From contig JAQBYD010000002.1 in assembly GCA_027623315.1 (NCBI GenBank), positions 52,140 to 116,139 on the forward strand: DNA of 64,000 bases, given 5' to 3'. Made by a program: the position numbers and the translations under genes. Shown one piece after another: positions 16,034 through 40,436 of the stretch. Position 1 is the first letter of the stretch, and each line of letters begins with the position of its first letter. Below the pieces are notes generated by a model, which was not told the DNA's origin, searched no databases, and worked only from the letters and a program-made list of their open reading frames with translations. This DNA comes from Verrucomicrobiota bacterium (lineage in GTDB: Bacteria > Verrucomicrobiota > Kiritimatiellia > CAJWTS01).

Positions 16034-16106
16034 CAGACAGAGATAGAACCGCGGTCTCTCCTCTCCGGATATTCGTGCAGATTCGCGTGATTCGTGGGCC
16101 CAAAAT
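16034..16106. repeat. Short intergenic repeat, family B, 'empty-site' copy
   Basis: The reverse complement reads ttttgggcccacgaatcacgcgaatctgcacgaatatccggagaggagagaccgcgg|ttctatctctgtctg. It matches the flanks of the 31 kb and 40 kb copies but has no internal insert at CCGCGG|TTC. Lies between the cysM stop and metXW start. Confidence 0.7.
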
Positions 16107-16122
16107 TTGGGGAAGATCCAGG

Positions 16123-17076
16123 CTAGAACAACGACTCAAACGGCATCATCGACAGGTAGCGCTCGCCGGAATCGGGCAGAATCACCACGATGGTCTTGCC
16201 TTGGAACTCGGCCTCCTTCGCCAGGCGCGCGGCGACAGCGACGGCCGCGCCACACGAGATGCCCGACAGGATGCCTTCCTCGCGAGACAGGCGCTCGGCA
16301 TACTCGAAGGCTTCTTCGTTCGAGATCTTCTCGACGCGGTCAACCATGCCCAGGTCCAGGGTGCCGGGAATAAAGCCCGCCCCAATGCCCTGAATCGAAT
16401 GCGACTGCGGCTCCAACGGCTTGCCCGCGAGGGTCTGCGAAATGACGGGCGAGTTCTCCGGTTCCACCGCGACCGATATCAGCGGATGATTCTGGATCTC
16501 CTTGATATAGCGCGAGACGCCGCTGATCGTTCCCCCGGTCCCAACACCCGAGACGAGTGCGTCGATCTTTCCATCCGCGTCCTTCCAGATCTCGGGACCG
16601 GTCGTCTTAACGTGGATCGCGGGATTCGCCGGATTCTCAAACTGGTGCGGCATGAAGTAGCGGCCCGGGTTTTCTTCCACGAGTTCCAGCGCCTTGTCGA
16701 TCGCGCCGGTCATGCCCAGTGAGCCCTCGGTAAGAATGATCTCCGCACCCAGCGCTTCCAGAATCTTGCGGCGCTCGATAGACATGGTATGCGGCATCGT
16801 AATCGCGACCTTGTAACCGCGCGCCGCGCCCACAAACGCCAGCGCAATGCCGGTGTTTCCGCTTGTCGGCTCAATGATCTCCATGCCGGGCTTGAGCTTC
16901 CCGCTCTCTTCGCCGTCCCATACCATGGCGGCCCCGATGCGGCACTTGACTGAGTAGGCCGGATTGCGCCCTTCAATCTTGGCCAGCACAAGCGCATCGC
17001 TCTGGCCAATGATCTTGTTGAGTTTCACCAACGGCGTGTTGCCGATGGAAAGGGAGTTGTCTTCGAAATATGCCAT
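16123..17076 (-). CDS. cysM: Cysteine synthase (CysK/CysM family, PLP-dependent)
   Basis: Lys-PLP motif SVKCRIG and glycine-rich loop GTGGTISG. Sits beside sulfur-carrier genes as in the M. tuberculosis cysM-cysO-mec arrangement. Confidence 0.85.
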
Positions 17077-17176
17077 TGCTCGTTACCTTTCAAGAGCTCC
17101 GCGCAGGTCGGCGCTCAATTTACCACGTTTTTTGGACCACGAAGTTTCACGAATGGGTTCTGTGTCATTTGCAGGC

Positions 17177-36915: not shown

Positions 36916-39309
36916 ATGAATTCAGCACGACTGATGCTGACCACCGGATTCGTTTCGATGATCGCGTTCGCAACGCCAGCCTTCGCGCGGGACTACGAGG
37001 TATCGGGGGCAAGCGGAGTGTGGTGGATAGCTCCGATCGCGTCCATTGCCGCGCTTGGTTTCGCGATGTACTTCTACAAGCTCATGCTCGCGGCCAACGA
37101 AGGCAACGATCGCATGAAAGAGATCGCGAGCTATGTTCGTGAGGGCGCGATGGCCTATCTCTTCCGTCAGTACCGCGTGGTGACCGTCGCTTTCATCGTT
37201 CTGCTGGTGATCTTCGCCGTGCTCGCGAAGATGGGAATTCAGAATCCCTTTGTCCCGATCGCATTTCTGACGGGTGGTTTCTTCTCCGGCTTGTGTGGTT
37301 ACCTGGGCATGAAGACGGCGACCAGCGCCTCCTCTCGCACGGCGCAGGGCGCCAGTGAAGGCTTGAACCGTGGTCTGCAGGTGGCATTTCGTTCGGGCGC
37401 GGTGATGGGCTTGATCGTGGTTGGCTTTGGTCTGCTGGACATTTGCCTGTGGTACCTGATTCTCGATAAGTTCGTCTATACGCCCGACCATATGGCCACC
37501 GGCATGAAGTTGATGGGGATGACGCTCGTTCCCGAGGGCACGACGGCGATCGAGAAACTGGTGCACATCACGACGACCATGATTACGTTTGGCATGGGCG
37601 CGTCGACCCAGGCGTTGTTCGCCCGTGTCGGCGGCGGAATTTACACCAAGGCGGCCGACGTCGGCGCCGATCTGGTGGGCAAAGTTGAGGCCGGAATCCC
37701 CGAAGATGATCCCCGTAACCCGGCGACCATTGCGGACAACGTCGGCGACAACGTGGGTGACGTTGCGGGCATGGGCGCGGATCTCTATGAGTCGTACTGC
37801 GGGTCGATCCTCGCCACCGCCGCACTCGGAGCTGCCGTGGGCGCTTCCAATGGCGATATCGAGCAGGCGACAAAACTGGTTACGGCTCCCATGATTGTGG
37901 CTGGGCTCGGAATCGTACTCTCGATCATCGGAATCTTTGCCGTGCGCTGTAAGGAAGGTGCGACGCAGAAGAACCTGCTGACCGCGCTCCTGATCGGTAC
38001 GCTCGGAAGTTCGGTGCTGATTATCGGAGCCGTCGCCGGGTTGGCCGCGTTCGGCATGATCACCTGGGGCATCTTTGGATCGGTGATCGCGGGGCTGATG
38101 GCGGGCGTGATCATCGGGCAGTCGACCGAGTATTACACCTCGGACGAGTACAAGCCAACGCAGGGCATCTCGGCGCAGTGCAAGATGGGGCCGGCAACCA
38201 CGATCATTGACGGCATGGCGGTCGGCATGTACTCCGCCGGTTTGCCGGTGATTACGATTTGCCTGGGGATCCTGTTCTCCTTCGGATTTGCCGGCGGGTT
38301 CACCGAAGGCGGATTCTCGATGGGGCTGTACGGGATTGGATTCGCGGCGGTCGGAATGCTGGCCACGCTGGGGATCACGCTCGCGACGGACGCCTACGGT
38401 CCCATCGCGGACAACGCGGGTGGAAACGCCGAAATGGCCGGCCTGCCGCCCGAGGTGCGCGAGCGTACGGACGCGCTCGACTCCCTGGGCAACACGACCG
38501 CCGCCACGGGCAAGGGATTTGCCATCGGCTCCGCGGCGCTCACGGCCATGGCACTGCTGGCCGCCTATATCGAGGAAGTGAAGCTGTGGCTGGCCAAACT
38601 GGCGGGTGACGCCACGATCGTCGTGGGAAAGACTACGCTGAGCGCTGCCCAGATCACAAAGATGGAGATTCTTGACCTCGTCGACGTCTATAGCCTGCAC
38701 ATCATGAATCCACTTCTGCTCTGCGGGCTGTTTCTCGGCGGAATGATGGCCTTCGTCTTCTGCGCCATGACGATCAAGGCCGTCGGACGAGCAGCGGGCG
38801 AGATGGTCGAAGAGGTAAGGCGTCAGTTCAGGGAGAAGCCCGGTATCATGGCGGGCACGGAGACGCCTGACTACGCGCGCTGCGTCGCGATTTCGACAGC
38901 CGGCGCCCAGAAAGAAATGATAGTTCCCTCGGTGATGGCCATCACGGCTCCGGTCGTCGTCGGATTGATCCTCGGCGTTCCCGGCGTTGTCGGCTTGCTC
39001 GCCGGTGGCCTGGTCTGTGGTTTCGTGCTCGCCAACATGCTCAACAATTCCGGCGGCGCATGGGATAACGCGAAGAAGTTCATTGAGAAGGGCAATCACG
39101 GCGGCAAGTACCTAGAGAACGGAGACAAGAATCCGGCTCATGGCGCTGGCGTCATTGGCGATACGGTCGGTGACCCGTTCAAGGATACCGCGGGGCCCTC
39201 GCTGAACATCCTGATCAAGTTGATGACCATGGTCAGCATTGTCTTCTCGCCGGTGATCGTGAAGTACTCGCCGGCGATCCAGGAGGCACTCGGCCTCGTT
39301 ACGCACTAA
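36916..39309 (+). CDS. hppA: Membrane-bound proton-translocating pyrophosphatase (H+-PPase)
   Basis: Signature [36 protein letters not shown], multiple TM segments. Start set at MNSARLM (the listed ORF starts at 36826). Confidence 0.9.
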
Positions 39310-40082
39310 TGCAGCTCTTGTTCCTCGGTACCGGTACGTCGGTTGGCGTACCGGCGATCGGGTGCGCGTGCGCAGTCTGCCGGTCCGACGACCCGCGTAA
39401 CAAGCGGCTCCGGCCGAGCGTCGTGGTGGAGTCGGGTGAGACGCGGATCCTGGTCGACACCTCACCGGATCTGCGAACCCAGGCGTTGACGCACGGGCTC
39501 AGCCGCATCAGTGCGGTCCTGATCACGCACACGCACGCGGACCATATTTTCGGGTTCGATGACGTGCGCGGTTTCAACGTTCACGGCGCGTCGGCGACCC
39601 CGGTGTATGGTATTCCAGACGCCATCGCCGATATGCGTCGCATCTTCCCCTACGTGCTCGGCGACCCGGACGAACCGGGGCGCTACCGCGCCAACGTGGA
39701 GTTCGTGGAGGTGTCGGGCCGCTTCGAAGTGGGCCCGATCCGGATTCAACCGATCCCGGTGATTCACCATCCGCATCCCACGATCGGCTACCTCTTCGAA
39801 GACGCGGGCAAGCGGATCGCCTATGTTCCCGATGCCAGCGACGTGTCGGACGAAACGGTGGAAATGCTGACCGGCGTCGATATCATGATCCTGGACGGGC
39901 TGCGCCATCGTCCTCACTTCTCGCACATGACCGTGGAGCAGTCCGTGGGCATCCTGCGTCGCATTGGCGCCGGCCAATCGTACTTGACCCACATGTGCCA
40001 CGACCTGGATCACGCTGAGACCGAGCGCGATCTGCCCGACACCATCCGCCTCGCCTACGACGGCCTGGTTCTCGAACTCTAG
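39309..40082 (+). CDS. MBL-fold metallo-hydrolase (PhnP-like)
   Basis: HTHADH motif (…VLITHTHADHIFG…) with N-terminal Cys cluster (GCACAVC). Confidence 0.8.
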   Translation: MQLLFLGTGTSVGVPAIGCACAVCRSDDPRNKRLRPSVVVESGETRILVDTSPDLRTQALTHGLSRISAVLITHTHADHIFGFDDVRGFNVHGASATPVYGIPDAIADMRRIFPYVLGDPDEPGRYRANVEFVEVSGRFEVGPIRIQPIPVIHHPHPTIGYLFEDAGKRIAYVPDASDVSDETVEMLTGVDIMILDGLRHRPHFSHMTVEQSVGILRRIGAGQSYLTHMCHDLDHAETERDLPDTIRLAYDGLVLEL

Positions 40083-40142
40083 CCCGGATATCTCACACTT
40101 TTCCTACTACGAACACGGATAGCTCCGTCAGGCTTGAAACCT

Positions 40143-40436
40143 CCCCAGAATTTGGGCCCCCTGTACCAGAGCTTCGTACCCCCGCCCGGCGCGGGGCGAG
40201 CTCAGCACGGTACAGGGCAGGCACGAATCACCCGAATCGACACGAATGTCCAGAGCGGAGAGACCGCGGATAGCGCGGATGGGCGCGGATACTTTCGATT
40301 TGGAGCAGAGCGTATTGACCGCAAGGAGCACGGAGATCGCCCTGATCTACACTGCTGTATCCGGTTAGACCTCCTTAGCCGTAATCCGCGCCCATCCGCG
40401 CCCATCCGCGGTTCTATCTCTGTCTGCACTCGCGGG
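40143..40436. mobile_element. Family-B repeat with nested MITE-like insert (about 141 bp, 40270-40410) and an extra 5' palindromic module
   Basis: …tttgggcccc…cacgaatcacccgaatcgacacgaatgtccagagcggagagaccgcgg[atagcgcggatgggcgcggatac…ttgaccgcaaggagcacggagatcgccctgatctacactgctgtatccggttagacctccttagccgtaatccgcgcccatccgcgcccatccgcg]gttctatctctgtctg. Lies between convergent MBL-hydrolase and CaCA genes. Confidence 0.6.

Follow-up and report, generated by a model that had tools for sequence, protein, structure and literature searches.

The 64,000-nucleotide (nt) stretch of Verrucomicrobiota DNA analyzed here (the window; GenBank assembly GCA_027623315.1, contig JAQBYD010000002.1, positions 52,140 to 116,139 of the forward strand) holds copies of one two-layer palindromic repeat at three intergenic sites, near 16 kb on the minus strand, at 31 kb and at 40 kb. 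These sites probably represent copies of a single composite that is eroding by deletion, rather than a target seen with and without a jumping insert, as an earlier, sequence-only reading of the same DNA had proposed. We suggest that the outer layer would be a gene-less miniature of a multi-phylum family of inverted repeats whose full form tightly encloses one gene of the GxxExxY family (PF13366), and that the inner layer would be a second palindrome of the same design, built from GCGGAT heptads and seated where the outer layer has its CCGCGG centre.

The 31 kb copy (copy B, 31436-31712, plus strand) is the most complete composite, running from a left flank through an outer left arm, an inner palindrome and an outer right arm to a right flank, and starting within the TAG stop of a DUF4404 gene. 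Its outer left arm (31464-31492, plus strand; GCCCGCGAATCACGCGAATCCACACGAAT) comprises three CRCGAAT heptads with a period of 9-10 nt, and its outer right arm (31647-31675, plus strand; ATTCGTGAAGCTTCGCGTGATTCGTGGGC) is inverted. Between them, the inner palindrome (31510-31631, plus strand) opens with a first CCGCGG at 31510-31515, followed by a 116-nt insert (31516-31631) with the second CCGCGG at its end; the left terminus reads CCGCGGAT-GG-CGCGGAT-ATG-CGCGGAT, and the right terminus is a single AATCCGCGG. The hairpin within this insert is perfect, as previously described, with arms of 22 nt rather than 20 (31549-31570 and 31574-31595, plus strand) around a 3-nt loop. Folded as single-stranded DNA, the whole 234 nt of copy B reaches -76.9 kcal/mol (z = -11). 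Copy B is a complete palindrome thanks to its second, inverted outer arm, which is missing from the half copies A and C.

Copy A is a half element on the minus strand at 16028-16124, these boundaries being approximate and set by comparison with contigs L127-L129 of a relative. It contains a left flank that includes the TAG stop of cysK, a left arm of three heptads (16071-16096), GGAGAGA, a single CCGCGG (16049-16054) and TTCTATCTCTGTCTGTATTCA; the single CCGCGG is followed directly by TTCTATCTCTGTCTG, with neither inner palindrome nor right arm. Copy C (40129-40424, plus strand) lacks the outer right arm and approximately 320 nt beyond it, relative to the orthologous copy in contig L125 of the relative. 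Its inner palindrome (40264-40411, plus strand) has three GCGGAT heptads at either end, with CCGCGG at 40264-40269 and again at 40406-40411, and its insert measures 142 nt, so that of the two insert sizes given earlier (about 116 and 141 bp) the former is exact and the latter one nucleotide short. The alignment thus bears out a half copy without insert at 16 kb, inserts located at CCGCGG in B and C, and, more generally, a nested architecture in which a larger palindromic repeat holds, precisely at its centre, a short palindrome that has inverted termini of its own. The loss of one hairpin arm from the 40 kb insert is likewise confirmed: the left arm is replaced by approximately 24 nt (40308-40331, plus strand), the last 18 of which (ATTGACCGCAAGGAGCAC, 40314-40331) are identical to 27764-27781, which accounts for the fragment recurrence noted near 27768. 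Copy C also holds an extra GC-rich palindrome of 62 nt (40160-40221, plus strand; CCTGTACC...GGTACAGG) between GGGCCC and the first heptad.

All three copies share a left part consisting of TTTGGGCCC, three CRCGAAT heptads, CCAGAG.GGAGAGA and CCGCGG. Each outer arm is made of three heptads (CGCGAAT or CACGAAT) at a spacing of 9-10 nt, about one helical turn, and the inner element follows the same plan with heptads of GCGGAT; of these, B and C both have three on the left, and the right side has three in C and one in B. The duplicated CCCATCCGCG described in copy C is indeed present, and is better read as an original three-heptad right terminus that mirrors the left GCGGAT heptads, because L125 also has three right heptads; it is B that lost two. 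These sequences are strongly enriched within the window, where a 17-mer of the arm has 8 matches against 0.43 expected, and a 24-mer of the insert core has 2 against 0.00 expected. An assembly artefact is ruled out, as independent assemblies from ENA, Logan, JGI and NCBI agree on the sequences.

The inner element is short and non-coding, being crossed only by short stop-bounded open reading frames (ORFs) and having no gene called in the source annotation, and the outer layer of the window copies is also non-coding and encloses no ORF. A search for spurious ORFs over other copies, with a peptide read through the repeat, gave no candidate. The motif AAGGAGGT occurs on the minus strand of B at 31609-31616, as reported from the sequence; its candidacy as a minus-strand ribosome-binding site is ruled out, as no start codon follows, no ORF is conserved, and L125 does not retain the motif. 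On its gene-sense strand, the insert carries ACCTCCTTA at 31609-31617 and 40370-40378 (plus strand), which is the usual 3' tail of 16S rRNA, and which is partly kept elsewhere as ATCTCCTTA in the metagenome contig L002 and as ACATCCTTA in L125.

The history of these copies is best seen at orthologous sites in the relative, whose helicase is 96% identical and whose other proteins are at least 90% identical to those in the window. At its B site, represented by ten contigs (L121, L130-L138) from eight samples, the left arm is followed by GAGAGACCGCG, then GTAATCTGCGG, and then TTCTATTGCGATCC. The 11 nt of GTAATCTGCGG are the right terminus of the insert, the rest of which is missing; this match indicates that most of the insert was deleted, and that the site is a remnant rather than a virgin target. 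The relative's left arm, directly after the DUF4404 stop, is polymorphic, with two or three heptads (CCCACGAATCACGCGAATATCC versus CCCACGAATCATGCGAATCATGCGAATATCC), which is direct evidence of heptad-unit slippage. At the C site, L125 retains both outer arms, a shortened and diverged insert, and three right heptads. Over its right-hand 95 nt, which span the insert end, the outer right arm and the flank, L125 is identical to B at 85 of 95 positions, and as this likeness extends well past the insert, the unit copied was the composite, which is larger than the insert. Together, the remnant at the B site and the insert at the C site of the relative place both insertions before the split of the two lineages. 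The 62-nt palindrome of copy C is absent from L125, which makes it the one clear lineage-specific insertion, and the only clean pair of filled and empty sites; neither the window nor the loci collected contained another copy of it.

A further state of the composite occurs in L002, a metagenome contig of unrelated context in which the upstream gene reads as ferredoxin-like. This copy has both outer arms and only the right half of the insert; the segment corresponding to 31501-31569 of B is missing, with GGAGA at both breakpoints. In neither L002 nor L125 do the breakpoints of the partial insert coincide with the insert termini. The A site of the relative (L127-L129) spans approximately 88 nt that align poorly, with only CCCACGATC where the arm begins. 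A 20-mer of the insert core has no match in 185,579 species genomes and one in metagenome contigs, that in L002, which again lies inside the same host repeat. Indeed, the inner element is confined to this repeat in all its copies, namely those of B, C, L002 and L125 and the remnant shared by L121 with nine further contigs, and approximately 18 kb of extra sequence from the same and sister metagenome-assembled genomes (MAGs) contained no further composite copy. Ordered as C, B, L125, L002, L121, A, these states are best explained as the erosion, through deletions between short direct repeats, of one composite that is older than the species split. Upstream of its DUF4404 gene, the relative also carries a right-half element (GGAACCGCGGTTTCACC...ATTCGTGCGGATTCGCATGATTCGTGGGC; L130 3290-3346 and L121 770-826), and at the corresponding place in the window (31000-31090) there is unrelated sequence of similar length.

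The outer arms belong to a much wider family. An 18-nt arm pattern, CCCRCGAATCACRCGAAT, matched at least 118 stretches of public genomes, and the matches listed fall mostly in Verrucomicrobiota (Opitutaceae, Chthoniobacter), Planctomycetota (Pirellula, Botrimarina, Lacipirellulaceae, Phycisphaerae) and Kiritimatiellota, with some in Acidobacteriota, Desulfobacterota and Spirochaetota. By our own estimate approximately 70 matches would arise by chance across the whole collection; most matches nevertheless have an inverted partner. Approximately 99 inverted arm pairs are found among the matches listed, with interiors of 12-500 nt that share no mutual similarity. An ORF of at least 100 amino acids (aa) ends within 40 nt of 56 of 69 arm pairs (81%), versus 25.5% of random positions. 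This family of heptad-array inverted repeats is apparently undescribed in the literature that could be searched; we found no paper containing the arm sequence, or dealing with repeats around GxxExxY genes. On one Clostridia MAG contig (L117, approximately 4945-5120), many tandem CGAATCA-type heptads form one long run instead of three per arm, which may be an expanded array of the same heptad unit.

All nine GxxExxY genes examined lie inside or beside heptad arms, wedged into conserved operons. Within approximately 0.86 Mb of loci selected for their arms, 7 of 7 GxxExxY genes lie inside or directly beside arm pairs, and each arm pair with an interior of 394-499 nt (L008, L065, L103, L114) encloses one gene of this family; the genes of L114 and L065 are TIGR04256 members (E = 1e-39 to 1e-41), and the others are tblastn matches to these. 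When approached from the protein side, through homologues of an arm-associated protein, two more loci (L139, L140) were found in which the same arms overlap the start and stop codons of the GxxExxY gene. The first of these cassettes lies between the V-ATPase B and D genes of Tichowtungia aerotolerans (CP047593.1; L139 2985-3415), and the second between nuoL and nuoM of a Chthoniobacterales genome (L140 2968-3456); further cassettes occupy L065 5249-5700, L103 2231-2766 and L114 1938-2368. Where neighbours were named by eye from translated flanks, the cassette falls between gatA and gatB in two Planctomycetota, and between an apparent ABC ATPase gene and a permease gene in one Opitutia genome. 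A long inverted repeat around one small ORF is thus present in L008, L065, L103, L114, L139 and L140, and not in the window copies, which from their arms look like gene-less miniatures of GxxExxY cassettes.

The GxxExxY proteins conserve a D...ExK motif and have a PD-(D/E)XK fold. An AlphaFold (AF2) model with a pLDDT of 89.3 matches Cas4, lambda exonuclease, Hjc, splicing endonucleases and I-Bth0305I; these matches reveal no more than the generic PD-(D/E)XK fold, and say nothing about substrate. A sequence search of the PDB with GxxExxY returned no relative, and a protein-first scan of viral contigs for GxxExxY confirmed nothing. The proteins are numerous, with more than 5,000 matches at E <= 1e-20 to one query, and cultured carriers include Tichowtungia aerotolerans, Chthoniobacter flavus and Botrimarina colliarenosi.

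Other heptad words form palindromic triple arrays in the same genomes, including CACGAAA, CACGGAT, CACAGAT, CACGGAA, CGCCAAGG and GCGGAT. Arrays of the GCGGAT or ACGGAA type are found inside CRCGAAT arms in the window and in three other loci (L069, L100, L022), and the reverse order also occurs, with CRCGAAT palindromes inside arms of the GCGGAT type (L108), the CGCCAAGG type (L073) and the ACGAAAA type (L020, L043). Both nesting orders are hard to explain unless one kind of palindrome is able to enter the centre of another. Nested insertion, as envisaged in the sequence-only reading, is therefore a reasonable idea for this heptad superfamily, in which it probably happens; it was not caught in the act at the window sites.

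We propose that a GCGGAT palindrome would have entered the CCGCGG apex of the outer palindrome once, before the split from the closest known relative, and that the composite would then have been duplicated in one piece to several places, landing in each case at or within the upstream gene's stop codon. The copies have probably since eroded through deletions between short direct repeats such as the heptads, CCGCGG, GGAGA and GAT. Deletions of this kind would be promoted where hairpins or cruciforms form, and half copies broken near the centre would also have arisen. Spread would occur at the level of DNA, and might depend in trans on a protein that reads heptad arrays, for which the GxxExxY nuclease is the obvious candidate. 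The anatomy, the distribution of the family, its association with the gene, the ancestral presence at two sites and the series of deletions are observed here, and it is the original nesting event, the copying step and any role of the nuclease that we advance tentatively. It is similarly possible, if on present evidence doubtful, that heptad-array palindromes serve as the ends or recognition sites of selfish GxxExxY cassettes spread over several phyla, and that the abundant gene-less ones of the PVC group (Planctomycetota-Verrucomicrobiota-Chlamydiota) and other genomes, among them the host repeat of the window, are non-autonomous miniatures; homing of members into the apex of one another would then build the nested mosaics.

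Several points weigh against these proposals. The clean single CCGCGG of copy A has the exact look of a pre-insertion site; as a deletion between two CCGCGG copies would give the same product, copy A cannot decide between insertion and deletion, and the alignment of the A site in the relative is too poor to separate gain from decay. The composite is represented by six known copies or states, drawn from approximately 90 kb of this genome and the short contigs of relatives. The protein-first test of the association with GxxExxY relied on homologues of an arm-associated protein, so that this test is not fully independent. There is no GxxExxY gene in the window, no target-site duplication is visible at the cassette edges in L139 and L140, where no sister empty sites were compared, and a 125-aa PD-(D/E)XK protein is not a known transposase.

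The principal alternative is that the inner element of 116-142 nt is an active MITE (a miniature inverted-repeat transposable element) that targets and duplicates CCGCGG, such that A is truly empty and B and C are independent insertions. Its inverted-repeat termini are good, CCGCGG stands on both sides of the insert in B and C and exactly once in A, and the nesting of palindromes in either order in other genomes means that apex insertion must occur; the 62-nt palindrome, moreover, entered copy C after the split from the relative. We nonetheless regard an active MITE as unlikely, as the relative holds an insert remnant at the B site and an insert at the C site, which places both insertions before the split. 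The supposed empty state is, in other words, largely a deletion derivative, with the ambiguity of copy A as the exception. The partial inserts of L002 and L125 break away from the termini, and the likeness of B and L125 beyond the insert points to copying of the composite. The element is absent from 185,579 species genomes and is never seen outside its host repeat, and no partner transposase is encoded in the window or approximately 18 kb of flanks. Finally, CCGCGG is palindromic and forms part of the terminal heptad, and so yields a direct repeat without any duplication event, which makes it unreliable as a target-site duplication.

A selected function in RNA, whereby the repeats act as 3' untranslated region (UTR) hairpins that stabilize mRNAs, are cut by RNase III or terminate transcription, and differ between copies through tuning, would fit the position of the family (81% of pairs within 40 nt of a gene end), and the shared orientation of the composite copies, every one of which starts within or immediately after the stop codon upstream of it. 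Folding is very strong, and the insert, read in mRNA sense, carries ACCTCCTTA, the 16S rRNA tail sequence. Mismatches in the arms, however, show no strand bias toward G.U pairs (52 sense versus 58 antisense), no U-tract follows the outer arms, and a terminator scan of 31000-41000 reports no site there; its only match within an element is a 5-bp stem in the heptads of C. The flanks read GGGCTCCTCC and GGGCACCAAC. With Rfam 15, only RNase P reaches the gathering score in the window, and a permissive scan of B returned generic miRNA-hairpin matches below threshold. Across phyla it is the arm sequence itself, beyond its pairing, that has been conserved; the spacers of the left and the right arm are often unpaired, and Watson-Crick complementarity averages 80% over 29 nt. 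Copies decay freely between close relatives, and the CCTCC motif is not conserved in L125. Selection for RNA hairpins is thus very improbable; we take the elements to be DNA-level repeats with possible side effects on transcripts, and an incidental transcript effect is still likely. Binding of a host nucleoid-associated or regulatory protein to the heptad arrays, beside which GxxExxY genes would merely land, is consistent with sequence conservation across phyla, and with three direct heptads at 9-10 nt, which present the same helix face on each arm. The coexistence of many heptad words per genome is hard to square with a single host protein, however, and the interiors carry unrelated cargo; further, where GxxExxY genes sit in conserved operons, the arms extend over both the start and the stop codon, and the whole looks like one inserted unit, and copies are lost or broken between close relatives. 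We consider host binding sites to be a long shot, and prefer an eroding composite of DNA-level palindromes.

The composite and its relatives resemble several known systems in part. Free-standing PD-(D/E)XK homing endonuclease genes are small nuclease genes that occupy conserved loci, with a patchy distribution across distant taxa, and the GxxExxY cassettes are likewise small nuclease genes inserted in conserved loci with patchy taxonomic spread. Homing endonuclease genes, by contrast, are not known to have heptad arrays at their flanks or numerous miniatures that lack the gene. IS1397, ISKpn1 and ISPpu10 are full insertion sequence (IS) elements with transposases and demonstrated activity that insert into the loops of repetitive extragenic palindromes (REPs). 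Here too, insertion would have been aimed at the centre of a palindromic repeat; unlike these elements, the insert is a palindrome of 116-142 nt without sign of recent movement. IS elements that insert into REP loops are mentioned by Di Nocera et al. (2013; PMC3733652), who describe the REP unit as an imperfect palindrome of 20-40 nt with a GTAG or CGTC tag, and report that REP dimers always occur within longer palindromes, the "unlinked" empty form never having been found. REPs and bacterial interspersed mosaic elements (BIMEs) are, like the present repeats, short high-copy intergenic palindromes arranged in mosaics, and the restriction of REPs to the inside of larger palindromes parallels the inner element here. 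The present repeats differ in lacking a GTAG/CGTC tag, in building each arm from three tandem heptads where a REP has a small stem-loop, and in sharing their arm sequence among several phyla, where typical REPs are species-specific. No gene for a RAYT (Y1 transposase) was found in the window or its approximately 18 kb of flanks.

Two Coxiella elements offer further parallels. QMITE2 lies in 3' UTRs, overlaps ORF ends, predates strain divergence and serves as a landing site for another element (PMC5896051), and resembles the window copies in its size of 100-300 nt, non-coding nature, terminal inverted repeats, 3'-UTR position and overlap with ORF ends. In contrast to QMITE2, no target-site duplication is demonstrable here, the inner element is not independently dispersed, and the ORF-bearing relatives carry a 125-aa PD-(D/E)XK protein instead of an IS transposase. 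Coxiella's 23S rRNA intervening sequence (IVS; PMC4990558) is, like the cassettes, a selfish-looking long inverted repeat around one small ORF without assigned function; the cassettes differ in lying between protein genes of operons instead of in an rRNA helix, and in encoding GxxExxY instead of the four-helix S23p protein, and the window copies are ORF-less. We therefore file the elements as neither REPs nor MITEs, as they fail the REP definition, and have no demonstrable target-site duplication and no known transposase. The inner element is short, non-coding and bounded by terminal inverted repeats, as MITEs are, and neither dispersal in unrelated contexts nor filled and empty alleles at orthologous sites were found for it; the outer element combines terminal inverted repeats with high copy number, and its longer relatives with the same termini encode GxxExxY, a predicted nuclease that is not a known transposase.

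The window contains additional repeats of these and other kinds. A complete palindrome with the same outer arms and an unrelated interior of 60 nt lies at 22925-23043 (plus strand). A third kind of heptad palindrome (27764-27905, plus strand) is composed of the units CGCAAGGAGC and CGCGAGAAGC, inverted as TCTTTGCGGTCA, and the fragment in copy C derives from its first unit. A separate repeat module at 14104-14180 (plus strand), with a second copy of 94% identity at 23031-23109 that directly abuts the 23 kb palindrome, belongs to the same mosaic of intergenic repeats. A match resembling the arm, at 44745-44767, has 3 mismatches and falls within coding sequence; it was taken as chance. Long tandem arrays of 7-nt units (CCTGACT/CCTGCCC; CCTGACA) occur at 48123-48314 and 54223-54386, just downstream of a topoisomerase VI B-like gene and of leuS, respectively, and are mutually related. 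The ORF at 48295-50121 (minus strand) encodes a topoisomerase VI B transducer domain and a GHKL ATPase domain (Pfam E = 5e-55), and the neighbouring 378-aa ORF (46290-47426) has no Pfam match. Two dispersed inverted-repeat pairs, at 21802-21833/26413-26444 (32 nt, 97%) and 28061-28110/47967-48016 (50 nt, 80%), suggest from their sequence further intergenic repeat families in this genome. The RNase P RNA, of bacterial class A, lies at 641-1037 (plus strand, 220.8 bits).

In itself, the composite is a modest variant of known mosaic repeats. It carries a caution, in that a clean "empty" copy beside "filled" copies of a palindrome is no evidence of transposition: where a palindrome is bordered by palindromic tips of its own, deletion is precise, and the orthologous sites here show decay, not insertion. 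The wider and more interesting result is the family of heptad arms and its link with GxxExxY genes, which it brackets within V-ATPase, nuo, gatAB and apparent ABC-transporter operons. As cultured carriers exist, the idea that the GxxExxY nuclease reads or moves the arrays is directly testable. If true, the reading of these loci as selfish cassettes would give both a function and a mechanism to PF13366/TIGR04256, a very large protein family that now has neither.

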